Assembly: GCA_032718475.1 (NCBI GenBank)
Contig: JAUCBJ010003854.1
Span: 1 to 33,410 of the forward strand
Source of the DNA: Nemertoderma westbladi
Lineage: Eukaryota > Animalia > Xenacoelomorpha
DNA: 33,410 nt
Direction: 5' to 3'
Positions within the stretch are counted from its first letter, which is position 1; every line of letters begins with the position of its first letter. The notes beneath the pieces are model-generated. The model did no database searches. It was not told where the DNA came from and saw only the letters and a program-made list of their open reading frames with translations. The position numbers and the translations under genes are program-made. This document shows, piece after piece, positions 1 to 33,410 of this stretch.

Positions 1-1
1 G

Positions 2-2300
2 GAAGAAATAAGCAAGCAATGGAGTAAGTGGACGGGGAGTTTAGAACAGATGGGGACGTACAGCATGCCACGCGTGTATTTCCCGGATGGGGACATGAAG
101 GATCTGGACCTACACATGTTCTCCGATGCATCATTGGAAGCATACGGAGCGGCACTCTACCTAGTACAGCGAAAGGGGGCTCATAAGCCCAGACTCGCAT
201 TCAGTAAAGCAAAGTCGACGCCACCAGATTCAGCGTCAGTCCCGAAACTCGACTTGACAGCTGCGAGATTAGGAGTAAGGGCCACAGCCTACTTGATGGA
301 AGCTATACCCAACATAGTGGAAACACACTACTGGACGGACTCTATGGTAGTGCTCGGGTGGCTGCACAACAAGAAGACGAGATACACTATATTCGTCGCG
401 AATAGGGTAGACGAGATAAGGGCGATGACAGACTTAGAAAGGTGGCAATACTGCCCTACGGACGACAACCCAGCAGACCTGTTATCGAAGGGCATGGAAC
501 GCCACACTTTCTCAAAGAAGGAAGTGTTGTGGCAGCACGGCCACACTTCCTGAACGATAGATCGGCCTGACCACCAATGAAGAAGGTGGACCCGGGCTCA
601 GAGGAGGTATCACTAGGAGAAGAGGGAGAAGATTCAGAAGGAGAAGAGATATATAGTCAGATGGTGAGGGAAGTCAGGGAGGTGAAGCCGAAATTAGAAG
701 AACCATGCGACAACCCGACGGATAGGTTACTCAGCTACAGCTCCAGCTGGTACAAGACCAAGAAGTTGGTAGCGTACTGGAGGGCCTACGGGGATTTCCT
801 CAAGGGAGCTGGCAAGGATGCCAAGAGGAAACCAGATATCGATCTGGAGGGAGCGGCTAAGGCCGTGACATGGTACGAACAGAGAAGGTACTATGCCGAC
901 GAAGTGGATCGAGTTAGCAAGCAACAACATCTTCGTCGAGTCAGCGAGCTCATCGTGCTGTCACCACAACTAAACAATGATGGGATTCTGGTGATGAACT
1001 CCAGAGTGCTGAATACCAACAGCTTAATCATCCCACCAAAACCCATTATCATCCCCAACAGATCGCCGATAGTCCACCAGATCATTTGGGACTCCCACAA
1101 GTCGATACTACACGGAGGCACCAACCAAACCCTCACAGAGATACGGAGGACCTTCTGGATCACACAGCTAAGGAAGAAGATGAAGGCTGTAGTTGGGGAG
1201 TGCCAGACCTGCCGACGGACGAGAGAGAGGAGAGGGCCGTATTATTATTATTATTATTATAGACCAGATCACATTACCATCAGCACTACATTATTATATT
1301 ATTAATAGGTCTACATAAATACAATTGATCCGTACAGGAGATGGCGCCATTACCGGCCAGTAGGGTGAGACAGCACGACCCGCCATTCACGCACTGCGGC
1401 GTAGACATGTTCGGGCCAATTAAGATCAAGGTGATGCGGCACACGGAGAAATGCTACGACATCATCTTCGTTTGTAACAACACGAGGGTGGCGGGAATAG
1501 AACTTGCCCAGGATGCCACGGCATCGGCATTCATTAATGCCTTAGAGAGATTTAGAAACCGCAAAGGTGGAACGATTGCAGTGATCTATTCCGACAATGG
1601 GACCAACTTTGTGGGAGCGGAGAACGAGTTGGAGGAGGCCTTTGACATCCTAGAAGGAGACGATGTGAGGGTGGCCATGAGGAGACGACAGGTGAATTGG
1701 GAAAGGAGGACGCCATATGCACCGCATACTTTAGGATGCGTCGAGAGGCTTGTGGGTAGTTCCAAGCATCTGATGACGAAGTTGATGAACACACACATGA
1801 TGACAGAGGACATACTAAGGACGGTGCTAGCTAAATGTGAGGGAATCATCAATAGCAGACCGCTATATCCGGAGAATGACTACCCGGAATCACTAGACGT
1901 GCTAACACCAAGCCACTTTCTGATGGAAAGGCCGGTGACCATAGACATGCGGGGTGTAGACCCAGATGACATACACTCCCGACAGAGTTGGAAAGTCGCC
2001 AAGGCGATAAGCGCCGAGTACTGGAGGAGATGGGTCGAGGAATACCTACCCACATTACACAGGAGGAGCAAATGGAGAAACACCACTAGGGAGTTAAAGA
2101 AAGGTGACTTAGTGATCGTCACAGACGACACAATCATTAACAACCAGTGGAGGTTGGCGAGAGTAGTAGACACTTACCCCAACGAGGATGGAAGAGTCCG
2201 ATCGGTGGAAGTGCGGATAGGGGGCAAAATAGGAGCAAAGGACAGGAAGACCTGCAGGAGGTCTGTAGGAAAGTGCTGCCTATTAGAAGGAGCACCATAG
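2..2300 (+). pseudogene. pol: BEL/Pao pol C-terminus: RNase H (2-~540), integrase HHCC finger, DDE core and C-terminal domain; disrupted
   Basis: Motifs LHMFSDAS..AYGA, SKAK..P, PKLDL.AA.LG, YWTDS..VLGW, FVANRV..I, NPADLLSKG; H-x4-H...CQTC; PFTHCGVDMFGP, IYSDNGTNFVGA, CVERL, LTPSHFL, W.RW..EYLP.L..R.KW, DGRVRSV. Lesions: frameshift at ~540 (WQHG/PHFL), TGA at 568-570, frameshift plus insertion at ~1221-1334. Final stop TAG 2298-2300. Confidence 0.93.
1242..1329 (-). mobile_element. 88-bp AT-rich insertion with (TAA)n tail on minus strand; probable 5'-truncated non-LTR retroelement 3' end
   Basis: Flanked by CCGTA at 1237-1241 and 1330-1334. Starts with a (TTA)n run on +. Splits integrase between CQTCRR and (AV)QEMAPLP. 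Confidence 0.65.
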
Positions 2301-2481
2301 AGTTTAGTTGTCCAAGTGTTGGACTGAGGGGGTGGGATTGAGGGCGAGACGCCCTTCCCACACAAAATATAAAAAAAAATAAAAATAAAATAATAAAATA
2401 AAGTAGTAGAAAGAGAGTTAGAAAGTTAGAAAGAGAAAGTAATAAGTAAGTAGGCAGATAGAAGCGTTAGTAGAGTTAGAA

Positions 2482-2777
2482 AGTAAGAGGGTACATAGTA
2501 CCGTTAGTAAAGTTAGAGAGTAAGAGGGTACGTAGTACTGTTAGTGGAGTTAGAGTTAGAGAGTAAGAGGGTACGTAGTACCATTAGTAGAGTTAGAGTT
2601 AGAGAGTAAGAGGGTACGTAGTACTATTAGTAGAGTTAGAGTTAGAGAGTAAGAGGGTACGTAGTACCGTTAGTAGAGTTAGAGTTAGAGAGTAAGAGGG
2701 TACGTAGTACCGTTAGTAGAGTTAGAGTTAGAAAGTAAGAGGGTACGTAGTACCGTTAGTAGAGTTAGAGTTAGAAA
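2482..2777 (+). repeat. 43-bp minisatellite, ~7 copies (AGTAAGAGGGTACGTAGTACCGTTAGTAGAGTTAGAGTTAGAG)
   Basis: GTAAGAGGG recurs at 2483, 2520, 2563, 2606, 2649, 2692, 2735 (first spacing 37 bp, then 43 bp). Confidence 0.9.
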
Positions 2778-3015
2778 GTTAGAGAGTTAGTAAGAGTTAG
2801 AGAGTTAGTTAGAGTTAGTAAGAGTTAGTAGAGTTAGAGAGTCAGTAGAGTTGGAGAGTTAGAGTTAGTTAGAGTTAGTAAGAGTTAGAGAGTTGGTAGA
2901 GTTAGAGAGTTAGAGAGTCAGTAGAGTCGGAGAGTTAGAGTTAGTAGAGTTAGAGAGTTAGAGAGATAGAGAGTTAGAGAGTTAGTAGAGTTAGTAGAAA
3001 GAGAGTGGAGAGTGT
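2778..3015 (+). repeat. Degenerate (AGAGTT/AGTT/AG)n low-complexity tract, almost C-free
   Basis: Direct reading: runs of GTTAGA, GTTAGTAGA and GAGTTAGAGA. Confidence 0.85.
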
Positions 3016-3590
3016 GATATGTAAGTATATCATAGTAATAGTGGTGATAGGGTACGTAGTACCGTAGGGGCTGTGGGCATAGAAAGCACCACGAAAGTAA
3101 GAGGGGGCACGTGGGTACAGCAGGATAGACCGTGTAGGCCGCACGAGACAGACTACTGTACTGCACAGCCCATAGAATAGGTTAGAATGTTTGATACAGG
3201 GCCAGGAGGTTACCTGGTGCAGACTAGCACAGTAGGGAATAGCTAGTCTACTCTGTATGCAAACCATAGGGGTTATTTAGGAAAATAACCCACTATAAGT
3301 ATTAATAGCACAGTAATGGGATTAAAATTAGAATTCAAAATAAAATTCAACAAATTATAGTAACAGTAGGTGGGAAATTCTAGAACATAATAAAAGTAAC
3401 TGACAAATTTGGGGAATTTAGGAAAATTAGCACTTTGGGGGGTACATAGGTAAAATATAGTGTAAAACCCTAGTGTTCTGAGAGAGATTGGCCATTATCG
3501 AACCACACAGACCATCCTAACAACATCACTCATCTATCTTGAGCCTTGGTAAGGCACCACCTTGTAGGTGAGCGATTGGGAGTGTTCGAA

Positions 3591-6500
3591 ATGGCGGAAA
3601 GACTTGTCAGGAAGAGAAAGGTGGAAAGAGGTGGAAAGGAGAGACTAGTAGACTTCACCCAAAGAAATCCGGAGGAGAAGACGAGGGGATACTACGAGCC
3701 GTTAGCGAAGGGTCACAAGGCGCGAACGCTGCAGGACCATTTCAGGGAGATGCACGAGAGGCGGCTGGTCGGGACCTACGGGACACCATCGCTAGACAAC
3801 GCGATCCTCGAGCATTTCCACTATGTAGTGAAGGGAGACGAGGCGAAGTTCTGGATACCGAAGTATCTGAGGGAACCACCGAGAAAGGACTGGAAGAGGT
3901 TCATAGAGTCCGTAAGCAGGGGAGGATACATGGTCCTAGACGATGAAGGGACTGTGGAAGACGACGAGGGTTCGAGAAGAGGGTCGGCGGGGTCGGCCAG
4001 AACCATACTTCTGCATTTGGCTGCGCCAAATGGGGACATATTCCTGTTCGATCTGGGAATGTATGGGAAGAAGAGCGGGCCGAAGTTGAACCGCTTGCCA
4101 AGGGCGGTACAGAACCTAGTAAGGGAGAAGTCGATGATGAAGGTGGGATCGGCGATCCGCGACGATGCGGAGAGGATCGTCGGACTGGAGACCCCCAACC
4201 TCCTGGACATGCAAACGGTCTACATGGCCATGACAGGGCCAGCTGGGTTGGGATTGGTAGAGAATACAGGACATTGCGGAGCAGTGGCGATGGGCCAGCT
4301 CATGGGGCTCGTCTGATTCAGGGAGGAGTACGGAGCGGAGTTGGCGAACTCGCTGAAGTGGGGAGCGAGGCCAGGGAAACAGGAGGTGTATCAATTCTGG
4401 TATTCCGATATATAATTTCGATATATCCTGCAGGAGGATTGGATAATGATAGGTTTACTAAACCTATCCATGGCCGTGGTTATCGGAAGAGAGCCAACGG
4501 CGTTTCTGCTGTCAGGATCACCCCTGAACTACAGAAGAGCCTTCAAGGTGGCCTTCGAGGGTCTGGCAGACCACCCGGGGCTGAAGGGCGAGTCGGTATA
4601 CTACAACTGCCGATATCTAGTAGACAGGGAGGTGGATACACCATATCAGCGATGGGAGAAGCTGGAGGCGGATAGACTAGAGGAGAAGCGATTGGAAGAA
4701 ATCGCCAGATGAGAAAGGAGGGAAGCAGACGAAAGAGATGCGGAAGCTAGAGGAGAGGACTACGGGTTCGAGGCCCAGAACTTAGACGAGTTACGGTGGG
4801 GATCAGAGAGCTCGGGCGAGTTTCTGGGGGAGGAGCTAGGATGGACGGAAGAATCGCCGAAACAGTCGACATCAGGATTGCAAGCGATGCCCATGCCAGC
4901 GGGCGCCGAGGGCGATTTCGCGAAGAAGAGACCGAGAGAACTGGAAGGATGGAAAGTTACGGGCAAGAGTCAAGGTGGGAAGGGACACAGTGGGTCTGCC
5001 GGGATACCGGGATTGGATCCACTCCCAGTGGGGGATGAGGATGACGACGAGTTCGGGGAGATGCCGCCCATCGAGAGGATCGGCCACTCAGACACGGACT
5101 GGGTTGGCGGGAGAGTGGTGATGGCCAGCGGGGTGAGGGCCTTCTGGGACAAACCCGGCAAGCGGGCCTGGGTGCACGAGGAGCCGGCGATGGATTTCGC
5201 GAGGAGCACCATCAGGTTGGGCGAACAACCGGGGACGGCACCACAGCTAGTGTTTGGAGAAACGATGCCGAGGCGAGACGAGGACGTAGACATGGACAGT
5301 AGGGCGGTGCGTTTTTTACTTTTTTTCGATTTTATTGTTCTACCGGTGCACAAAAGTTGCCAAATGGTACAAAATTAAGGCAAAAAAAATTTCTCTAAAT
5401 TTCATCGATATCTTGACGGATCCCAAGGGGGTTGAAATTTTAATACTTCGCTATGCACCACAATGAAATTTATAACAATATAACACATTGATGAAAGATC
5501 AATGACGCAAGAAAGAACTTCCTTCATGCATCAAATGTCATCAAATGGGTCCAAACTTAGTTAGATACCAAAATTTTAAATATTGGATCTAGGGAACTAG
5601 AGCCACAGGCACATGGCCAGGATCTACCCTTTGGCACTAGTGACGATTATTCTCAATTTTTGCGATGGTCAACTTTTATTACTCCTACTACATTAATAGT
5701 ATGCTCATTCGAACCACAATGACCGATTTAGTGGGGGTAGACACCTTCAAAACTAACGTAGAGCGAATAGTTCTTGAGATATCGCAGAAAATGTTAAGTC
5801 CGGCATAAGTCTACATTACCGCCTTGAAGCGATATGGGCAAATACACTAACAATGATACTTTGAATTATCTTAAGGCATCAAAAATATACACATCACTGC
5901 AACAAATTCATTTAATGTATACAGACACCTTCAAAATGAAAGAGTAGTGATTAGTTCACTATAGTTTTTGTACGAAATGTGTGGAATGGGTCAACTCAAA
6001 CTCAATATCAAGTATCAATAAATTGGTGGACATAGTCTTGACATTTTGTAAAATAGCTCAAGAACTACTGACTCTACTCTTATTTTGAAGGTGTCTACAC
6101 CCACTACATTGATCATTTTCTGTGATGTGTCTATTCTTGATTCCTTGAGATAATTCAAAGTATCATTTTATTATATTTGTCCATATCGCATTAAGGCGGT
6201 AATGTAGACTTGTGCCGGACTTCACATTTTCAGCGATATCTCAAGAACTATTCGCTCTATGCTTGTTTTGATGGTGTCTACCCCAACTAAATCGGTCATT
6301 GCGGTTCTAATGAGCATTATATTAAAGCAGTAGGAGAACTAAAAGTTGGCCATCGCGAAAATTGAGAATAATCGTCACTTGCGCCAAAGGGTATGTTCTG
6401 CCCATGTGCCTGTGGCACTAGTTCCCTTGATCCACAAATCAAAATTGTGGTTTCTAACTAAGTTTGGACCCATTTCATGACATTTTATGCATGCAGGTAG

Positions 6501-7537
6501 TTCTTTCTTGAGTCATTGATCATTCATCAATATGTTATATAGTTATAAATTTCATTCGCGATGGCTCAAAATTTCAACCCCCTTGGGATCCGTTAAGATA
6601 TAGACAAAATTTATAGAAATTTTTTTTGCCTTAATTTTTTACCATTTGGCAACTTTTGTGCACCGGTAGAACAATGAAATCGAAAAAAAGTAAAAAACGC
6701 GCCACCCTAATGGACAGAGACGTTAACACCCAGAAGTTTGCTAACCAACGGCTCCATAGACCTAGGAGACCGCTTGGGGCAAAAGACAACTTGGGGCAGG
6801 ATGTGTTGATACACAGCTGCGACTACTGCGGGAGGCTTACTCACCAGGAGAAGAGCTGTTTGTATCGATTCCAGAAGGGGACGAGTTGCCTCTACTGCCG
6901 CGAATCGAGTCATAGGATGGGGGCGTGTCCGAGGTTGCATAACCGGTGTTCTAAGTGTAACTTCCGAGGGCACTACGGGCGCCAGTGCGACTGGATGGAC
7001 AACGAGGAGAAGTTTAAGATCTTAGAGGAGTGGGCCGACGTCGGCGTGATGACATGACAGAGAATGAAGGCCCAGGAGTTCCTGTGGGGTTTCTTCAATA
7101 TCAACCAGGAGGCCCATCTGGAAATCATTAAGAGGAGGCTTCCGTTTACTTACCAAGAAGTAGCGACGGCGGCATCGTATGGTGGGGTCATCAATACGCA
7201 GAGGTATTTAGATAGATGGGCCCCAGAGAACAGAGGAGAGTTCAGAGATTTCCTGGCGGAGCATGTGCCGCAGACCATGAAGATGATCTTGTGGGATGCT
7301 ACTAGGGGAAAGCAGGAGGGGCATTCGGAAGGGCCACCTGTGAAGCGTTACTGGGAGCTAATAACACCAGCGCCCAAGGAATCGACCACGGGAATCAGTA
7401 AGGAGGTAACGGCGAGAAAGAGGAGCCTTAAGGAGGATAAGAACAAGGAAGCGGCAACAACAAGGAAGCGACCGAGACAGGACGACAATAGAGGGAAGGA
7501 ACTGAGATGGTTCCCGAAGACAGGAGGAGCGAACTAA
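3591..7537 (+). pseudogene. Retrotransposon accessory ORF (~842 aa reconstructed): DEDDy 3'-5' exonuclease-like domain, acidic linker, 3x CCHC zinc knuckle, basic tail
   Basis: ORFs at 3546, 4446 and 4878 share one frame, separated only by single stops (TGA 4314, TAA 4413, TGA 4710). Removing 5300-6717 joins in frame to MDRDVNTQ; TGA 7055 is followed in frame by the 7064-7537 ORF. Exonuclease motifs MVLDDEG, ILLHLAAPNGDIFLFDL, LP..VQNLV.EKSMMKVG.AIRDD, NLLDM, *FRYILQED. Knuckles CDYCGRLTHQEKSC, CLYCRESSHRMGAC, CSKCNFRGHYGRQC (6818-6988). Confidence 0.8.
5300..6709. mobile_element. Non-autonomous hAT-like foldback DNA transposon, 1410 bp, with very long imperfect inverted arms
   Basis: 8-bp TSD ATGGACAG at 5292-5299 and 6710-6717. 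Termini TAGGGCGGTGCG / CGCGCCACCCTA. Arms alignable as reverse complements inward to ~5980/~6040. AT-rich, no transposase ORF. Confidence 0.92.
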
Positions 7538-8274
7538 GACTTTGAGGGGGAGATGTGGGGATGCCTGGAAGGCACCACATGCGAAGTAATACGAACTCCT
7601 AAGTGCAAATTTAATAAAAGGCAATTAGTATGTACGTATGTAATAATCAATAGAATATAATAATTAGAATCAGTACAATCAAAGTAAGTACTATAGTCAT
7701 GTAACCTTTTCCAACTAGCTACTGGGACTGGGGACCAATTGACTATGACAGGACAGGACACTAGACGAACCACACTTCTTGAGTGCGACGGCACAAAAGG
7801 GGAGGGTGAGGCTCGTCAGGAGTGATTGGAGCGAAACTAGTATGGGTCGAGTACAGGAGCACTGGGAAGATATTGAGAGGGGGTGTTGACGCATGTGGGA
7901 AGTAGACGGGTGCAATTCAAATGTGGGGAGCGAGCAGTAAGAGGGAGAGTAAGGGACAGAGAGGTCCGAGAGTGAGATAGAGTAGAGTGGAGTTAGAGTG
8001 GAGCTAAAGTGAAGTTAGAGTCAGTTCAGAGTGAGGAGATATAAAATTGTGTGAGAGGAGTCCACAATTGTCTCGAACTGGGACGTCAGATGTCTTGGTG
8101 CAACATAGGTTGTGGTTGCACCAAGAAGGGGTAGTAATATCATACCCAGAGGGAGCGGCCTGGAAAGCCGACTCCGGGAAAATAACTCCACCCCACACCC
8201 GATAGTAGATCGGGTTCCAGCGGAATTGAAGCGCACTTGTAGTTGATGCTATCTTCTCACCGGGAAGATAGCAT

Positions 8275-8284
8275 GGGGGGGGAG
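8275..8284 (+). promoter_or_regulatory. Polypurine tract (plus-strand primer)
   Basis: GGGGGGGGAG immediately before TGT, preceded by a perfect 11-bp hairpin ATGCTATCTTC/GAAGATAGCAT (8246-8274). Confidence 0.8.
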
Positions 8285-8914
8285 TGTAAGCGGATTCAAT
8301 TCCGCCTCATTACCCTCATAAATGGGATGGTGGCATTTTCAGCAATATGTTGGAGATACGAGATTAGCAATAATTAATCTCGTATCACAACCAACATCGG
8401 GGGACAGTACAAACCCCGAAGCCACAAACAAAGGGAGGTTAGAGGTCAAACCACCTCGGAGGGGACACAGCTAGCAGGGGCTAGCAAAAGAGGGGAAGCA
8501 CTCCCAGAGAGTGGAAAGGCGAGAAGTGGGTTATTAGCCAATAAGGGCAAAGGAGAGCATCCACTAGGTAGCAGGCCAAGGTAGCATAGGAGAAAAGTAA
8601 TATTGGTATATCATATATTATCTCCTTGCTACCGGTTTATCATTCAGTTACCCAGTTATCAGTTTCAGTGCAGACCGGCAACATTGTCTTACCGTTGTCA
8701 CTAAGTGCTGTTATACGCTATCATTCAGTTACTACTATAACCGGTTTGTCAATCCGTTATCAACTGTGATATTATTATTACATATATGTTGGAACCCAAG
8801 GAACATCAAACTCTAAGACATTTTTTCTCCAACGGCCTCGGCCAAGTTACCCGATATCAGCCTAGGGCGACGCGTACAAGCATTAACCCGGTCGGGATCC
8901 CTGATCCCGTCACA
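8285..8914 (+). repeat. 3' LTR (~630 bp), TGT...ACA
   Basis: Starts TGTAAGCGG after the PPT. Ends CCCGTCACA exactly where the adjacent LINE RT coding sequence is cut. No second LTR copy is in the window to confirm the ends. Confidence 0.7.
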
Positions 8915-9599
8915 AAAATCGGGATCTATACTACTTATCATATCATTTACATCGCATACAAAAAGCAGAGGACCTAATATATACTACCTTGCGGTACACC
9001 ACAGGAATCTCTTGTACAGTAGACTGTGATTTGCTAATGACTACAGTTTGACCTCTGTCTGACAGGTAGGTCTTGAACCAGTCTATAGAACCTACACCCA
9101 TCAGCAGGCCTAACTTACCAAGCAGAATTTCATGATCTACAGTATCGAAAGCCTTTTGTAGGTCCAACATTACCATACCAGTATATAAACCCTTTGCGTT
9201 ATTACATCTAATTGTATCAGTTAAGTTAATAAGGCAGGTGTCTGTAGAATATTATTTACGAAAACCGGACTGAAGTTCATAGATCAGATTTAGCCTACTA
9301 AGATGTGCTTCCAGCTGTAGAAAAACAGAACGTTCTAGAATTTTAGATACAATACTTGATACTAACAGGTCTGTAATTACAGGGTTCTACTTTAATATTC
9401 TTTTTATACAGAAGAACAACCTTAGCTAATTTCAGTTCGTCTGGTACTACATTATCTACAATAGAGTAATTAATAATAAAAGTAATAGGCACTTTAAGTA
9501 CTTCAGCACCATCTTTAAGAAAACGGGCAGGTATTAGGTCTAGACCGGTACTTTTTGAGGCTGATAGGCTAAGTAGATTTTGAAAAACGAAATCCTCGA
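8915..9599 (-). mobile_element. CR1-group (CR1/Crack/Daphne-like) LINE reverse transcriptase fragment, degenerate
   Basis: Minus-strand translation KSTGLDLIPARFLKDGA...NYRPVSI...SKILER...QSGFR...STDTCL...LDLQKAFDTVDH...WFKTYLSDR.Q.V...CGVPQGSI.LGPLLF..VNDM, with frameshifts and a stop. Ends before the YADD motif. Confidence 0.92.
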
Positions 9600-9911
9600 A
9601 TTACCCCAAACCAGAATACCCCGAAATACTTGTTTTTCACTCACGTTTATTGTTTTGGTTAGAAAAACTTGCCACTGTAAACTGCTCCTTTCCGTCGCCG
9701 TTTCTAAACATTGTTGGCTTATTTCGGGGTACCGGTACCGGTAATAGTTTAGCCTTTTTGTGGTATTTTGTGACTATTTTGGGGTAGGCCTAATTCGTAG
9801 GACCCTCTAACAGTCTAATGTTAACATATATTGGTTTTATATTGATCACATTCTGACATTACAGCATTAAATTATAAATTTTGCGTTTTTCAAACACTGC
9901 AAAAACAGCGT

Positions 9912-9982
9912 TGCCTGGTCGAGGGATCGAACCAGGGCCTCCTACTTGGAAGCCTAAGGTTGTCACCACTAGACCATGAGGC
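9912..9982 (-). pseudogene. Degenerate tRNA-like sequence (Gly-TCC-like; tRNA pseudogene or SINE head)
   Basis: Minus strand GCCTCATGGTCTAGTGGTGACAACCTTAGGCTTCCAAGTAGGAGGCCCTGGTTCGATCCCTCGACCAGGCA. A box TGGTCTAGTGG, B box GGTTCGATCC, CTTCCAA loop, TTTTT just downstream. Stems pair poorly. Confidence 0.6.
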
Positions 9983-10000
9983 TGCTTAAAAATGACAATT

Positions 10001-10064
10001 AGTTGCCGTAAATTGCGGTTAGGTAGTTGCGGTAAATTGCGGTTAGTTGCGGTAAATTGCGGTT
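10001..10064. repeat. Three tandem copies of ~20-bp AGTTGCGGTAAATTGCGGTT
   Basis: Direct reading, copies at 10001, 10025 and 10045. Confidence 0.85.
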
Positions 10065-10177
10065 TTTAGTAAGCCTAGGACCCGCACTGTCTTACTACAA
10101 CGTTGTCCAGTTGTCTGGTTGCTGGGTTGTACCGTACCGGTACTGCAGTACTGCAGTACTGCCACACTAAATAAATA

Positions 10178-11386
10178 ATGTTGCGATTATTCCGAATGGA
10201 CATTAATTCTCGTACACGTAGCGACGTAATTTCTTCCCGCCGATACGCGAAAAGCAGCCCCAGTAAACAACAGGCATCCTCTGCTACAATAGGTAAACTA
10301 TTGGGAGCCGGTCTGCTGACAGGGGGTGTCGTGTTGAGTCTCGGAGAATTCTACGACTACTACTACGGTGCAGAAGGTTATTACTTTCCCAGAGGAACAT
10401 GGGAAAACCCTTATTTACCTCTACAAGGGGCAGAAAACCCTTTTAAACAAATAACTGGTAAATTCCCGTGGACCGGAAACACCGACGATTTACAAAGAGA
10501 AAATAACGTCGCCGATTTACCTAAACTTCGAATAAAAAGACAAATTGTTGAAAAGTCTAAAAATCAGTTGCAAAATGAGTTGTCAGTTGAGGCTGATCCG
10601 GAACCGGTTTGCCCTGTTTGCCAAGTCACCGACGAGGGGGAAAAATCAGTGAAAATTGAAAGAATTCCGGAGGAAATCGATCCTAAAGAACCTGAAGTTT
10701 CTAAGGAGAAGGTTTATCGTACCGGGGCCGAGTTACTGGCAGAGGAGGAAACCGCTGTCAGGATGGAACGAGAGATTATAGAACTGCAAGAGTTGACGCA
10801 GCTGGAGGAGTTGGGAGAGCGGATGAGGGAATTACGGGTAGCTATGGTAACGGGTTTGCGTGGAAGCGAGTTGCTGTGCGAGACAATAGAGAACCAGACA
10901 GGGAAACTGAAGGAGGTTCAATTGGCGGCGGATGGCAGGGAGAAGTCGAATAAATGGGGGTCGTTGCTGTCCGCAGCTAATCGGGAAACGGAGTTGTTGC
11001 GACGGTATGAGGTGGATGAACACGAGGTTAAAGCTAAACTTGAGATGTTGAAGGCCGTTATCGATAGTAAATGCAACGTGTTGGTGGGAGAACCCGCTAA
11101 GAAAGAGTTGGATAAGTACAGGCTGGAGGTTGATGCTGTTATTAAGGAAGTAGAAGTTCGTAGCGATGAGGTTAATGGGAGGCGGAAAGTGTTGCTCGAG
11201 TCGATGAAATGTTTGGCAACCGAGATGGGCGCCGATGGCATCGAAGATAAACTAGTGGAAGCGTTCGGGAAGGAAAAGGTGTTTCTTATGAGGGAAATCG
11301 GTAGGTTACTGGATGCAGAAACGGATAAAAGGCACAACCAACTTATAGAGGATCTAAAGGAGGCGTATAAGAACCGGATGGAAGAG
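10178..11386 (+). CDS. MIC60: Exon 1 (403 codons) of a Mic60/mitofilin-like mitochondrial inner-membrane protein
   Basis: Arg/Ser-rich presequence with RRY|A, then TIGKLLGAGLLTGGVV hydrophobic segment recalling IMMT TTGKIAGAGLLFVGG. Long Glu/Lys coiled coil, EKSNKW motif. Ends in a phase-0 consensus donor GAG|GTAAGT. Homology is recalled, not searched. Confidence 0.78.
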
Positions 11387-14300
11387 GTAAGTTTATAAGA
11401 ACCGGAAGAGGTAAGTTTATAAGAATCGGAAGATGTAAGTTTATAAGGATCGGAAGAGGTAAGTTTATAAGAACCGGAAGAGGTAAGTTTATAAGAATCG
11501 GAAGATGTAAGTTTATAAGGATCGGAAGAGGTAAGTTTATAGAACCGGAAGAGGTAAGTTTATAAGAACCGGAAGAGGTAAGTTTATAAGAACCGGAAGA
11601 TGTAAGTTTATAAGGATCGGAAGAGGTAAGTTTATAAGAACCGGAAGAGGTAAGTTTATAAGAACCGGATGGAAGAGGTAAGTTTATAAGAACCGGAAGA
11701 TGTAAGTTTATAAGAACCGGAAGATGTAAGTTTTTAAGAACTGGAAGAGGTAAGTTTATAAGGATCGGAAGAGGTAAGTTTATAAGGATCGGAAGAGGTA
11801 AGTTTATAAGAACCGGAAGAGGTAAGTTTATAAGAACCGGAAGATGTAAGTTTTTAAGAACTGGAAGATGTAAGTTTATAAGGATCGGAAGATGTAAGTT
11901 TATAAGAACCGGAAGAGGTGAGTTTATAAGGATCGGAAGATGTAAGTTTATAACAACCGGAAGAGGTGAGTTTATAAGAACCGGAATAGGTAAGTTTATA
12001 AGAATCGGATGGAAGAGGTAAGTTTATAAGAACCGGACGAGGTAAGTTTATAAGGATCGGAAGAGGTAAGTTTATAAGAACCGGAATAGGTAAGTTTATA
12101 AGAACCGGATGAGGTAAGTTTATAAGAACCGGAAGAGGTAAGTTTATAAGAACCGGAAGAGGTAAGTTTATAAGAACCGGAAGAGGTAAGTTTATAAGAA
12201 CCGGAAGATGTAAGTTTATAAGAACCGGAAGATGTAAGTTTATAAGAACCGGACGAGGTAAGTTTATAAGGATCGGAAGAGGTAAGTTTATAAGAACCGG
12301 ATGGAAGAGGTAAGTTTATAAGAACCGGAAGATGTAAGTTTATAAGAACCGGACGAGGTAAGTTTATAAGAACCGGATGGAAGAGGTAAGTTTATAAGAA
12401 CCGGACGAGGTAAGTTTATAAGAACCGGAAGATGTAAGTTTATAAGAACCGGACGATGTAAGTTTATAAGAACCGGACTAGGTAAGTTTATAAGAACCGG
12501 AAGAGGTAAGTTTATAAGAACTGGAAGATGTAAGTTTATAAGAACCGGAAGATGTAAGTTTATAAGAACCGGACGAGGTAAGTTTATAAGGATCGGAAGA
12601 GGTAAGTTTATAAGAACCGGAAGAGGTAAGTTTATAAGAATCGGAAGATGTAAGTTTATAAGAACCGGAAGATGTAAGTTTATAAGAACCGGACGAGGTA
12701 AGTTTATAAGGATCGGAAGAGGTAAGTTTATAAGAACCGGAAGAGGTAAGTTTATAAGAATCGGAAGATGTAAGTTTATAAGAACCGGAAGATGTAAGTT
12801 TATAAGAACCGAACGAGGTAAGTTTATAAGAACCGGAAGAGGTAAGTTTATAAGAACCGGAAGAGGTAAGTTTATAAGAACCGGAATAGGTAAGTTTATA
12901 AGAACCGGAAGATGTAAGTTTATAAGAACCGGACGAGGTAAGTTTATAAGGATCGGAAGAGGTAAGTTTATAAGAACCGGAAGATGTAAGTTTATAAGAA
13001 CCGGAAGATGTAAGTTTATAAGAACCGGACGAGGTAAGTTTATAAGGATCGGAAGAGGTAAGTTTATAAGAACCGGAAGAGGTAAGTTTATAAGAATCGG
13101 AAGATGTAAGTTTATAAGAACCGGAAGATGTAAGTTTATAAGAACCGGACGAGGTAAGTTTATAAGGATCGGAAGAGGTAAGTTTATAAGAACCGGATGG
13201 AAGAGGTAAGTTTATAAGAACCGGATGTGAGGTAAGTTTATAAGAACCGGAAGATGTAAGTTTTTAAGAACTGGAAGATGTAAGTTTATAAGGATCGGAA
13301 GATGTAAGTTTATAAGAACCGGACGAGGTAAGTTTATAAGAACCGGAAGAGGTGAGTTTATAAGAACCGGACGAGGTAAGTTTATAAGAACCGGATGGAA
13401 GAGGTAAGTTTATAAGAACCGGATGGAAGAGGTAAGTTTATAAGAACCGGATGGAAGAGGTAAGTTTATAAGAACCGGATGTGAGGTAAGTTTATAAGAA
13501 CCGGAAGATGTAAGTTTTTAAGAACTGGAAGATGTAAGTTTATAAGAACCGGAAGAGGTAAGTTTATAAGAACCGGACGAGGTAAGTTTATAAGGATCGG
13601 AAGAGGTAAGTTTATAAGAACCGGAAGAGGTAAGTTTATAAGAACCGGACGAGGTAAGTTTATAAGAACCGGATGGAAGAGGTAAGTTTATAAGAACCGG
13701 ATGGAAGAGGTAAGTTTATAAGAACCGGACGAGGTAAGTTTATAAGAACCGGAAGAGGTGAGTTTATAAGAACCGGACGAGGTAAGTTTATAAGAACCGG
13801 ATGGAAGAGGTAAGTTTATAAGAACCGGATGGAAGAGGTAAGTTTATAAGAACCGGACGAGGTAAGTTTATAAGAACCGGATGGAAGAGGTAAGTTTATA
13901 AGAACCGGATGGAAGAGGTAAGTTTATAAGAACCGGACGAGGTAAGTTTATAAGAACCGGATGGAAGAGGTAAGTTTATAAGAACCGGATGGAAGAGGTA
14001 AGTTTATAAGAACCGGACGAGGTAAGTTTATAAGAACCGGAAGAGGTGAGTTTATAAGAACCGGACGAGGTAAGTTTATAAGAACCGGATGGAAGAGGTA
14101 AGTTTATAAGAACCGGATGGAAGAGGTAAGTTTATAAGAACCGGATGGAAGAGGTAAGTTTATAAGAACCGGATGTGAGGTAAGTTTATAAGAACCGGAA
14201 GATGTAAGTTTTTAAGAACTGGAAGATGTAAGTTTATAAGAACCGGAAGAGGTAAGTTTATAAGAACCGGACGAGGTAAGTTTATAAGGATCGGAAGAGG

Positions 14301-29300: not shown

Positions 29301-31687
29301 AGAACCGGAAGAGGTAAGTTTATAAGAACCGGAATAGGTAAGTTTATAAGAACCGGAAGAGGTAAGTTTATAGAACCGGAAGAGGTAAGTTTATAAGAAC
29401 CGGAAGAGGTGAGTTTATAAGAACCGGAATAGGTAAGTTTATAAGAACCGGATGGAAGAGGTAAGTTTATAGAACCGGAAGATGTAAGTTTATAAGAACC
29501 GGAAGAGGTAAGTTTATAGAACCGAACGAGGTAAGTTTATAAGAACCGGAAGAGGTAAGTTTATAAGAACCGGAATAGGTAAGTTTATAAGAACCGGAAG
29601 AGGTAAGTTTATAGAACCGGAAGAGGTAAGTTTATAAGAACCGGAAGAGGTGAGTTTATAAGAACCGGAATAGGTAAGTTTATAAGAACCGGATGGAAGA
29701 GGTAAGTTTATAGAACCGGAAGATGTAAGTTTATAGAACCGGAAGAGGTAAGTTTATAAGAACCGGAAGAGGTGAGTTTATAAGAACCGGAATAGGTAAG
29801 TTTATAAGAACCGGATGGAAGAGGTAAGTTTATAGAACCGGAAGATGTAAGTTTATAAGAACCGGAAGAGGTGAGTTTATAAGAACCGGAATAGGTAAGT
29901 TTATAAGAACCGGATGGAAGAGGTAAGTTTATAGAACCGGAAGATGTAAGTTTATAAGAACCGGAAGAGGTAAGTTTATAGAACCGAACGAGGTAAGTTT
30001 ATAAGAACCGGAAGAGGTAAGTTTATAAGAACCGGAAGAGGTGAGTTTATAAGAACCGGAATAGGTAAGTTTATAAGAACCGGATGGAAGAGGTAAGTTT
30101 ATAGAACCGGAAGATGTAAGTTTATAAGAACCGGAAGAGGTAAGTTTATAGAACCGAACGAGGTAAGTTTATAAGAACCGAACGAGGTAAGTTTATAAGA
30201 ACCGGAAGAGGTAAGTTTATAGAACCGGAAGAGGTAAGTTTATAAGAACCGGAAGAGGTGAGTTTATAAGAACCGGAATAGGTAAGTTTATAAGAACCGG
30301 ATGGAAGAGGTAAGTTTATAGAACCGGAAGATGTAAGTTTATAAGAACCGGAAGAGGTAAGTTTATAGAACCGAACGAGGTAAGTTTATAAGAACCGGAA
30401 GAGGTAAGTTTATAAGAACCGGAAGAGGTGAGTTTATAAGAACCGGAATAGGTAAGTTTATAAGAACCGGATGGAAGAGGTAAGTTTATAGAACCGGAAG
30501 ATGTAAGTTTATAAGAACCGGATGAGGTAAGTTTATAGAACCGAACGAGGTAAGTTTATAAGAACCGGAAGAGGTAAGTTTATAAGAACCGGAAGAGGTG
30601 AGTTTATAAGAACCGGAATAGGTAAGTTTATAAGAACCGGAAGAGGTAAGTTTATAAGAACCGGATGGAAGAGGTAAATTTATAAGAACCGGAAGATGTA
30701 AGTTTATAAGAACCGGAAGAGGTAAGTTTATAAGAACCGGAAGAGGTAAATTTATAAGAACCGGAAGATGTAAGTTTATAAGAACCGGAAGATGTAAGTT
30801 TATAAGAACCGGACGAGGTAAGTTTATAAGGATCGGAAGAGGTAAATTTATAGAACCGGAAGAGGTAAGTTTATAAGAACCGGACGAGGTAAGTTTATAA
30901 GGATCGGAAGAGGTAAATTTATAAGAACCGGATCGGAAGAGGTAAATTTATAAGAACCGGAAGATGTAAGTTTATAAGAACCGGAAGAGGTAAGTTTATA
31001 AGAACCGAACGAGGTAAGTTTATAAGAACCGGATGGAAGAGGTAAATTTATAAGAACCGGATCGGAAGAGGTAAATTTATAAGAACCGGAAGATGTAAGT
31101 TTATAAGAACCGGACGAGGTAAGTTTATAAGAACCGGATAGGTAAGTTTATAAGAACCGGATCGGAAGAGGTAAATTTATAAGAACCGGAAGATGTAAGT
31201 TTATAAGAACCGGACGAGGTAAGTTATAAGAACCGGATAGGTAAGTTTATAAGAACCGGATGGAAGAGGTAAATTTATAAGAACCGGATCGGAAGAGGTA
31301 AGTTTATAACAACCGGAAGAGGTAAGTTTTTAAGAACTGGAAGATGTAAGTTTATAACAACCGGAAGAGGTGAGTTTATAAGAACCGGAATAGGTAAGTT
31401 TATAAGAATCGGATGGAAGAGGTAAGTTTATAAGAACCGGATGGAAGAGGTAAGTTTATAAGAACCGGAAGAGGTAAGTTTATAAGAACCGGAAGAGGTG
31501 AGTTCATATGAACCGGAAGAGGTAAGTTTATAAGAACCGGAATAGGTAAGTTTATAAGAATCGGATGGAAGAGGTAAGTTTATAAGAACCGGATGGAAGA
31601 GGTAAGTTTATAAGAACCGGAAGAGGTAAGTTTATAAGAACTGGATGGAAGAGGTAAGTTTATAAGAACCGGACTAGGTAAGTTTAT
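11366..31687 (+). repeat. ~20.3-kb tandem array of 23-28-bp units (main 24-mer TATAAGAACCGGAAGAGGTAAGTT), roughly 800-850 copies, derived from the exon 1/intron 1 junction
   Basis: First unit (28 bp, 11366-11393) is the last 7 codons of the exon plus 7 nt of intron. Copy number is estimated as length divided by unit size. Confidence 0.97.
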
Positions 31688-32769
31688 GTTGGAGTTTGAG
31701 CACAGCTTGCCTCATTTCATAGCACTCCGTGTCGAACCAAGGTTTGGAGTGTCGAGTTGATCAGCGCTTTGGGGGTGCGGAGTCCTTAATCGCTGTGGTT
31801 AAAGACTCGTACGCACAATTAATATCCCCGTCTTGAAGCTTGAGAGCGGCAATATTGAGCCTAGCATCTGCCCCCAGCCTTAGAAGATCGACTTTCCTTG
31901 TTGGTTTAGGCGCGTTAATATCTTGTGGTACTGGAACCATTGACTCCCATGAAGCTTTTATCGGCACATGTTTGCGCAGAGGAACTTTTAACAGATCGAC
32001 CGATTTAGCCACGTTGTTGCTGTAGATTAAATCGATCACGCTATTGCCGTTATGACAGTAGTAAATGGGCTTGCTGGAATCGGTTTGTAAAGTGACACCT
32101 TGGTCTGCCATTATGGTTTCCAGAGGAACCCTTCTTTGGTGGTCAGTAATGTCCATTCTGGTGTTAAAATCTCCACCAATGAACACCGGACCGGACTCTG
32201 GGATAATGTCTAGCATCGATAGGACTCCTACGATGAAGTCCTCAAGGTCGAGATCTGGGGAAAAGTAACAACATGCGAAAGTTCCAATTAGACAGCTGAT
32301 AACAACATAATGTTTCTCGGATACCAGTAACCTTGGGTTTAGGGTTTAGGCATGGTTTTACCGCAATGATGATTCCACCAGCTGGTCTTCCCAGCCCCGA
32401 ATTTTTGACAGCGAGTGACTCAAAAACATAGTACCCGTGTAAACTGGTGCTTACGGTCGCCATTGTTTCGGTTAATAGGATAACGTCCGGAGCCGTTAGA
32501 ATATCCGATTGGATAAGTGACAATACCGAGACAATTCCTTCTACGTTCCATAGAAGCATTGAAGTTAGAGTGGAAGGGGAGCCAGATGCTTCTGGAGGGT
32601 GAGTTTCAACCGGAGAGACATGAGGAAAACAAGCAGCAGTGGTAACAGGGGTGGTTATCAGTCCCCCGACTGATAACCCGACTGAGTCGAAGCTGGCATA
32701 TCCGCGCGCGGCCTTCTTCGACCACCATAGCGAACGCGTTCGTCCTCTGCCAGCTGTTAATTTCTTATT
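31688..32769 (-). mobile_element. Internal fragment of a non-LTR retrotransposon: possible ORF1 end plus ORF2 APE endonuclease and linker; no RT or tail
   Basis: MLLWNVEG, DVILLTET, GRPAGGI, [frameshift ~32310] CYFSP, IGGDFN, YYCHNGNSVIDL, KHVPI, then a stop and KPWFDTEC. Confidence 0.9.
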
Positions 32770-32920
32770 GATGTAAGATGTAAGTTTATAAGAACCGGCA
32801 GATGTAAGTTTATAAGAACCGGCAGATAGGTAAGTTTATAAGAACCGGAAGAGGCAAGTTTATAAGAACCGGATGAGGTAAGTTTATATGAACCGTAATA
32901 GATGAGTAAATCTGTAAGAA
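32770..32920 (+). repeat. Terminal ~6 increasingly degenerate units of the splice-donor satellite
   Basis: GTAAGTTTATAAGAACCGG units resume after the LINE fragment and decay to GAGTAAATCTGTAAGAAC. Confidence 0.88.
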
Positions 32921-32996
32921 CTTGTCCTATAAAATATATTTTTAGGGAAGGTCGTAAAGTAGACGAGCTTAACGAGCAGTTATTATTATTTAACAG

Positions 32997-33173
32997 TTTG
33001 AGAAGCAATCCACATCTAAACTTCACCAACAACTTCACGATATAACGACGGCGCATAACAGATTACTAAAAGACGAACTGGAGACACAGAAGGAAGATTA
33101 CGAACATAAACTCCGACAGACTTTAGTTCAACAAAAAGATGCTTTGGAGAGTCAGTACCACAACGAGTTGCAG
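32997..33173 (+). CDS. MIC60: Exon 2 (59 codons) of the Mic60-like gene; not in the ORF track
   Basis: FEKQSTSKLHQQLHDITTAHNRLLKDELETQKEDYEHKLRQTLVQQKDALESQYHNELQ, resembling mitofilin QLRRQAAAHTDHLRDVL..Q. Acceptor CAG at 32994-32996. Probable donor CAG|GTTTGG at 33174, followed by AT-rich intron-like DNA. Confidence 0.75.
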
Positions 33174-33410
33174 GTTTGGATATCCGGGAACGCAAATATT
33201 ATATTATATATAAAGTCGTGACAAATTCGGGGGACAATATGCCCTGGGTAATATATTGCTAATTAAATAAGCTCGTTTCTTACTAACAACGCATTCAACT
33301 CACTCAACTCATTCACTTGTTATATACATAAATAATAACAGATTTTGTATATCTAAGTCCGTTTTATTTATTTACAAATATTTATTTATTAAAAATATTA
33401 AATTATTTTG

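Follow-up and report, generated by a model that had tools for sequence, protein, structure and literature searches.

We analyzed a 33,410-nucleotide stretch of the Nemertoderma westbladi genome (assembly GCA_032718475.1, contig JAUCBJ010003854.1, positions 1 to 33,410 of the forward strand), hereafter the window. It begins within a BEL/Pao retrotransposon whose pol gene is followed by a third gene, here called ORF3 (open reading frame 3, 3591–7537). ORF3 is placed after pol and ahead of a polypurine tract and a long terminal repeat (LTR)-like start, and variation among contigs supports purifying selection on this extra gene in many copies. Its N-terminal domain very probably belongs to the DEDD exonucleases, judging from profile alignments, and three CCHC zinc knuckles follow. 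The host superfamily, the nuclease branch, and the knuckle fusion are new, while DEDDy cargo in LTR elements is already known. Tentatively, we favor the reading that the third gene encodes a DEDD-type 3′–5′ exoribonuclease with three zinc knuckles, which would trim those small RNAs by which the host silences the element.

ORF3 lies downstream of a BEL/Pao pol

Pfam analysis identified the 3′ half of a BEL/Pao pol at 2–2300 (this and the following features are on the forward strand unless stated otherwise), with an RNase H/Peptidase_A17 region (Peptidase_A17, 4e-23), an H2C2 zinc finger (Integrase_H2C2, 4e-11), the integrase core (rve), and DUF5641 (1e-25). The Pao-type Peptidase_A17 region, together with an integrase bearing H2C2 and DUF5641, places the element in BEL/Pao (Belpaoviridae), as the first-pass annotation of this DNA had claimed; the extra reading frame that it had assigned to the env position is indeed found between the integrase and the 3′ LTR-like start. 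Among 3133 candidates, 242 BEL-type integrase relatives were retrieved at E ≤ 1e-10. The pol lineage appears unsampled, since no relative is closer than 45% identity and the integrase forms a long branch when placed with the 120 relatives listed.

Pol and ORF3 are separated by a 1.3-kb purine-rich non-coding stretch (2301–3590) with 37-, 43-, and 8-bp tandem repeats at 2444–2994. Six bases past the end of ORF3 starts a polypurine tract (7544–7553), immediately followed at 7554 by TGT, the usual start of an LTR. The likely 3′ LTR (7554–8197) has a TATA-like box at 8040, and its end is uncertain: either 8197, where a 7-bp inverted match lies, or about 8600, where the purine bias stops that otherwise runs unbroken from pol onward, except in the insertion described below. 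No second copy of the LTR from 7554 was found in 1–11380 or in 31601–33410, the parts compared on either side of a long satellite.

We compared the window with the contigs of sets X1–X3, which come from two studies (X1 and X3 from one sample, which may be the source of the window), and of set X5. Diverged contigs of X1–X3 were present in all 30 bins and cover the 2301–3590 stretch, and an X5 contig that differs from the window in 61 places connects the untranslated region (UTR) with ORF3 (3476–3865). Pol, ORF3, the polypurine tract, and the LTR start are contiguous in this copy, the only one in which ORF3 is seen linked to pol; of the LTR pair expected around them, one LTR-like start was detected. 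ORF3 is likely part of the same element as pol.

Minor features were also noted in this part of the window. The pol of this copy is broken near 551–571 and about 1240–1328. The latter stretch is AT-rich with a TTA run and is probably private to this copy, as an X2 contig skips 1218–1329. Just past the pol stop, a G-rich tract overlaps a 12-pair hairpin (2323–2362; −19.6 kcal/mol, a value without shuffle control). Similar purine-rich repeats occur in the UTR (2777–2895) and upstream of the TATA-like box of the LTR (7936–8049; 69% over 121 nt, low complexity), and an internal promoter of LTR type may lie in the UTR. At 8130–8500 the summed contig depth is raised, with loose ends of other repeats at 8129/8138; this is perhaps a region common to several LTR families.

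An exonuclease-like domain in the N-terminal piece of ORF3

The N-terminal piece of ORF3 (3591–5299) comprises a basic N-terminus, an exonuclease-like domain (about residues 96–290; 3876–4460), and an acidic low-complexity linker. The motifs read there earlier are all in place: D-D-E at 3939–3947, LLHLA at 4008, FLFDL at 4041, KVGSAIRDD at 4140–4166, and YILQED at 4422–4439. Because standard searches and alignment-free AlphaFold modeling were blank, we built our own DEDD profile, using 14 exonuclease domains of the RNase D, NrnC, and PolA types from bacteria. These were taken from 19 candidate translations, leaving out four wrong-strand readings and both readings of locus L020 (one DnaQ-type, one wrong strand).

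hhalign placed ORF3 residues 98–265 over 133 columns of this profile (score 33.9, P 2.4e-4), with D117, E119, and D192 on catalytic columns. None of 105 shuffled sequences (maximum 22.7) and none of 105 pol pieces (maximum 20.6) reached this score. ExoI, D117-x-E119 (3939–3947), aligns to the D-x-E of the 14 domains, and D192 (ExoII, 4140–4166) is in register with the conserved aspartate, as expected for DEDDy enzymes. Global hhalign points to Y278-x3-E282 (4422–4439) as the likely ExoIII, in place of the usual Y-x3-D. MAFFT favors F269-x3-D273 instead, which has no tyrosine and whose D273 lies in a stretch read differently by other copies. Thus, the DEDDy motif series proposed by the first-pass annotation held for D117, E119, and D192, with a profile score above controls, but not for ExoIII, where that annotation had itself noted E in place of D, and no library match accompanied it. 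On this basis the domain is classed as DEDDy-like and not as a canonical member.

We then added ORF3 residues 96–313 to the profile and scored PDB sequences, with the ORF3 linker and the integrase added as controls. Egalitarian rose from 47.9 to 55.8 bits with ORF3 (controls 43.7 and 44.3), EXD2 from 72.7 to 78.0 (70.1 and 64.4), Mut-7 from 67.5 to 70.3 (67.0 and 62.0), and the Trypanosoma brucei mitochondrial RNase D, TbRND, from 52.0 to 54.8 (49.0 and 46.0), and EXD1 entered the matches only with ORF3 in the profile. RRP6 fell in all three additions (from 103.3 to 99.3 with ORF3, 97.0 and 96.8 with the controls), the score of a phage PolA (7pbk) increased with each addition, most of all with ORF3, and WRN was uninformative. 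Since the hhalign match is in register and above its controls and the profile shifts in this way, we consider the N-terminal domain a likely, though divergent, member of the DEDD exonucleases on the Egalitarian/EXD/Mut-7 side, this placement being a lean and not a phylogeny.

No relatives of ORF3 were found in metagenome, viral, or phage collections. A plasmid match to one Haloferax hypothetical protein (E 0.01, two records) has no Pfam family and was discounted as chance.

Zinc knuckles and comparison with env and Gag

The C-terminal piece of ORF3 (6710–7537) carries the three C-x2-C-x4-H-x4-C knuckles annotated previously (6818–6859, 6887–6928, and 6947–6988), which weakly resemble Lin28 and nucleocapsid (E 0.1–7). 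A region of unrecognized kind, helical in a low-confidence model, separates them from a basic tail (7415–7477) resembling a nuclear localization signal, in which RKR at 7415 and RKRPR at 7463–7477 are present as described, as sequence positions.

We considered ORF3 as an env gene and rejected it: Pfam and KD19 analysis detected neither an env domain nor a transmembrane anchor, the KD19 maximum being 1.4 versus 2.5–2.65 in four env tails. Env-bearing BEL/Pao elements (PF12259 tails among the pol relatives) likewise have additional coding sequence past the integrase and ahead of the 3′ LTR, but their env tails contain hydrophobic segments, of which ORF3 has none. Few BEL/Pao elements carry env, which is the sole extra gene mentioned in the available part of a BEL/Pao survey; the word "exonuclease" is absent from its main text (PMC3118150).

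ORF3 was also rejected as a BEL/Pao Gag, as Pfam found no DUF1759 in it and it shows neither a BEL-type knuckle pattern nor likeness to BEL Gag. Among 59 BEL Gag-Pol proteins, each at least 1600 residues long, none had three canonical knuckles in 70 residues. Searching 80 metagenome BEL loci with ORF3 by tblastn gave no match at E < 0.05, and no ORF of at least 150 codons downstream of their integrases scored on the DEDD profile; downstream sequence of 2.5 kb or more was available in only 22 of these loci. In four loci (L027:5150–8758, L030:4761–7256, L043:5585–8608, and L067:4301–5416) a BEL Gag with DUF1759 starts 0.7–1.8 kb past pol; these are tandem or circularly assembled copies.

This copy is dead while ORF3 is under selection in the family

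In the window, ORF3 is a single unshifted frame with four stops (4314, 4413, and 4710 in the N-terminal piece, 7055 in the C-terminal piece), no frameshift, and a 1410-bp palindromic insertion. The pieces flanking the insertion are in register (567 + 275 = 842 codons). The frame of about 842 residues claimed by the first-pass annotation therefore stands in its four stops and in-register halves, but 842 is the count of this copy only. All four stops are present, but two of them are more than simple point changes. At 4315/4316 and over 4398–4419, contigs from other copies diverge from the window (loose ends in X1, X2, and X3), and a short local repeat lies within 4398–4419. From this divergence we conclude that two stops lie in lesions of this copy; residues about 242 and 270–277 are probably private to it. 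This BEL/Pao copy is dead.

The segment previously described as a foldback is palindromic (83% self-complementary), but is in fact a discrete, unstranded insertion (5300–6709) resembling a non-autonomous DNA transposon, with terminal inverted repeats and an 8-bp target duplication (5292–5299 / 6710–6717). These are features of hAT-type transposons, and no transposase was seen. By the 8-bp target-duplication rule, we take the insertion to be hAT-like. Contig depth in X1–X3 drops from 2700–4000 to 72–161 at 5300–5320. X5 depth is 18.3 both on 5206–5299 and at 6743, on the two flanks of the insertion, and judging from this equal depth one X5 contig probably spans the empty site. The X5 loose ends at 10045 and 5137 may be template-switch cDNA adaptor. 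X5 is provisionally listed as DNA; if it is instead a cDNA library, its ORF3 contigs would derive from transcripts.

Thousands of diverged contigs cover ORF3, which thus belongs to a multi-copy family; summed contig depth was not taken as copy number. On 3850–5320 we compared 3509 (X1), 2293 (X2), and 2339 (X3) contigs of 82–100% likeness and considered the best-supported 40 of 202 ORF3 variants. Third positions account for 30 of these 40 (p 8e-8), and 29 of the changes are synonymous, versus an expected share of 0.33 for random transitions (about 13). The synonymous share was 13/16 in the exonuclease core and 16/24 in the linker, compared with 15/20 in the integrase control. No indel reached a 15% share among the contigs on 3850–5320. 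This excess of synonymous changes supports purifying selection on the extra gene in many copies.

Comparable genes in other systems

We take the bdelloid rotifer lineages Juno, Vesta, TelKA, and Mag to be Gypsy-type, whereas the element described here is BEL/Pao. That bdelloid LTR elements and Terminons carry DEDDy cargo, as stated in the first-pass annotation, is published: DEDDy ORF3s occur in the LTR elements Juno and Vesta and are common to Athena/Terminon elements (PMC5408684, PMC6431247, PMC5718144), and the four lineages above are named in PMC5408684, according to which such ORF3s are typically expressed by splicing. Like our ORF3, those of Juno and Vesta are exonuclease-type cargo placed after pol in place of env, have no transmembrane segment, and have one motif acid exchanged (DEED in theirs, glutamate in ExoIII here). 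They differ in host lineage and in architecture, as our ORF3 is about 840 codons long and encodes a basic tail in addition to its three CCHC knuckles, and knuckles are unmentioned for theirs in the available portions of these papers. The Juno, Vesta, and Athena ORF3s did not surface in general ORF3 searches of a 5.8-billion-sequence set and of 1.84 billion representatives, in which no direct comparison with them was made.

In TbRND (PDB 7c42/7c45), the RNA is held by CCHC fingers during trimming by the DEDD domain; the enzyme degrades small RNAs, with guide RNAs as substrate (PMC7797062). It resembles ORF3 in having a DEDD exonuclease followed by a CCHC finger array. However, TbRND is a cellular protist gene with four fingers and a 28-residue linker, whereas ORF3 belongs to a retrotransposon and its three knuckles lie some 300 residues away. 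Pairwise comparison of the two gave E 0.54 over the knuckles only, which is not significant.

The Egalitarian, EXD1, EXD2, and Mut-7 domains are those toward which ORF3 shifts the profile, and no direct sequence match of ORF3 to any of them was found. EXD1, EXD2, and Mut-7 are host genes with other partner domains. The same is true of Egalitarian (PMC13186709). Our literature search, with Repbase, closed journals, and the supplements of PMC5408684 and PMC3118150 outside its scope, returned no BEL/Pao exonuclease ORF and no such cargo bearing knuckles, in agreement with the earlier statement that this domain combination is not known in BEL/Pao.

Proposed function of ORF3 and alternatives

A splice acceptor is predicted at 3512–3567, with a branch-point-like CTAAC at 3517, a pyrimidine-rich 30-mer, and a YAG at 3565. 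The 30-mer is the most pyrimidine-rich of 2300–3600 and the joint highest of 1–5299, and the ATG at 3591 is the only one in 3400–3600. This arrangement is as expected for a spliced subgenomic RNA, from which ORF3 may be read. The basic tail could take the protein into the nucleus, where the knuckles, by analogy with TbRND, may grip single-stranded RNA; its 3′ end might then be fed to a two-metal D-E-D-E site, much as guide RNAs are in TbRND, and the RNA shortened from that end. As substrate, one can only guess at PIWI-interacting RNAs (piRNAs), small interfering RNAs (siRNAs), or their precursors.

In its fuller form, which we regard as slightly more speculative still, an unsampled BEL/Pao lineage would have replaced env by an Egalitarian/EXD-like exonuclease with three knuckles that destroys piRNAs aimed at the element, convergently with TbRND, and thereby aids its high copy number. 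Suppressors of piRNA/siRNA silencing would be expected in animal retrotransposons by analogy with viruses. To our knowledge, such retrotransposon-encoded suppressors are poorly documented in animals. Exonuclease cargo in a second LTR superfamily, here with RNA-binding fingers and drawn from a different branch of the nuclease family, points to capture that was repeated under selection. Moreover, ORF3 offers a discrete, assayable domain in a many-copy family suited to dN/dS and small-RNA data.

Several observations weigh against this reading. ORF3 alone matched nothing in Pfam, NCBIfam, PHROGs, or PDB. Neither DNA_pol_A_exo1 nor zf-CCHC, expected from the first-pass annotation, was recovered, no Pfam family (PF01612 included) being reached at E ≤ 10 with filters on. 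No relatives were found among the 1.84 billion representatives, nor in the 5.8-billion set (0 of 3766 candidates and 0 of 447). Single-sequence AlphaFold runs had low confidence (pLDDT 36.6 and 42) and yielded no usable model. With hmmsearch, our profile scored ORF3 at 2.9 bits, a value also reached among the controls, both shuffles (1 of 1000) and pol pieces (4 of 396). ExoIII has glutamate for aspartate and is the weak point of the catalytic activity, which is a prediction only. The putative catalytic residues of Egalitarian are dispensable (PMC13186709), and the rotifer paper puts 3′-end processing of element RNA first and considers a mut-7-like role in silencing doubtful (PMC5408684). No contig of X1–X3 or X5 spans pol to ORF3, and the contig piece that crosses the pol stop extends only 29 letters beyond. 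The selection figures cover 3850–5320, with the knuckle half outside, and the 40 variants were picked by support. Finally, no datum here points to a substrate.

We ranked the explanations, likeliest first, as host silencing RNAs being the target, a non-catalytic adaptor, a nuclease acting on the element's own nucleic acids, an abutting element, and a chance likeness. The adaptor comes next to the preferred reading, as a possible but doubtful explanation: the exonuclease fold would bind RNA without cleaving it, as in Egalitarian/EXD1, and with the knuckles would route element RNA or particles (for example to the germ line) or shield them, doing env's job in spread without a membrane protein. 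I-factor RNA reportedly shares the gurken transport machinery, according to a title cited in PMC13186709. The largest profile gain toward Egalitarian, the appearance of EXD1 only with ORF3, the non-canonical ExoIII, and the dispensable Egalitarian residues (PMC13186709) all fit an adaptor. However, the ExoI and ExoII acids are all kept, Pfam detects no LOTUS-type domain in ORF3, and the shift test, which is no phylogeny, depends on a profile of 14 bacterial sequences.

It is rather unlikely that ORF3 is an active nuclease serving the element's own replication, by trimming (of genomic RNA at its 3′ end, of the primer, or of the ends of cDNA) or by proofreading, with nucleocapsid-like knuckles. 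The same sequence evidence applies to it as to the trimming of silencing RNAs, the weak likeness of the knuckles to Lin28 and nucleocapsid agrees with it, and such roles have been proposed for rotifer DEDDy ORFs (PMC5408684, PMC6431247). Yet other BEL elements manage without such a gene, as none of the 80 loci has a relative or a DEDD-like ORF downstream (at least 2.5 kb being available in 22 of them).

Still less probable is that ORF3 and the LTR form a separate non-autonomous or truncated repeat abutting BEL pol, with 2301–3590 as the BEL 3′ end. In its favor are the lack of a spanning contig, the G-rich tract after the pol stop, and the purine-rich repeats shared by UTR and LTR; moreover, at least 4 of the 80 BEL loci have, as their long ORF behind pol, the Gag (DUF1759) of a following copy. 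On the other hand, no LTR-like copy of the sequence from 7554 onward precedes ORF3, no well-supported loose-end cluster lies between pol and ORF3 among the clusters listed, and ORF3 differs from such a Gag in its lack of DUF1759, of any tblastn match in the 80 loci, and in its three canonical knuckles, seen in none of the 59 Gag-Pol proteins. That the gene is real but its exonuclease likeness is due to chance, ORF3 being a novel zinc-knuckle protein of another fold, is very improbable: the blank library searches, the weak hmmsearch score, and the missing AlphaFold model would fit, but the motifs are colinear with the profile across 133 columns, and two tests with controls also argue against it.

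Other features of the window

Downstream of the element, two non-LTR retrotransposon fragments were found on the reverse strand, one with a reverse transcriptase (8943–9600; RVT_1, 6e-6) and one with an AP endonuclease (31761–32835; 2e-7). A 49-bp stretch at 9645–9693 is flanked on both sides by loose-end clusters of 86–207 contigs (X1–X3) and is a short, widely dispersed repeat core. No tRNA genes were found in the window, and one Rfam match was judged to be chance. An open frame of 407 codons (10175–11398, forward strand), for which Pfam gave no good match, enters with its last codons the start of a 20-kb satellite (11380–31687), which consists of about 827 copies of a 24-bp unit, with five further units at 32775–32895.

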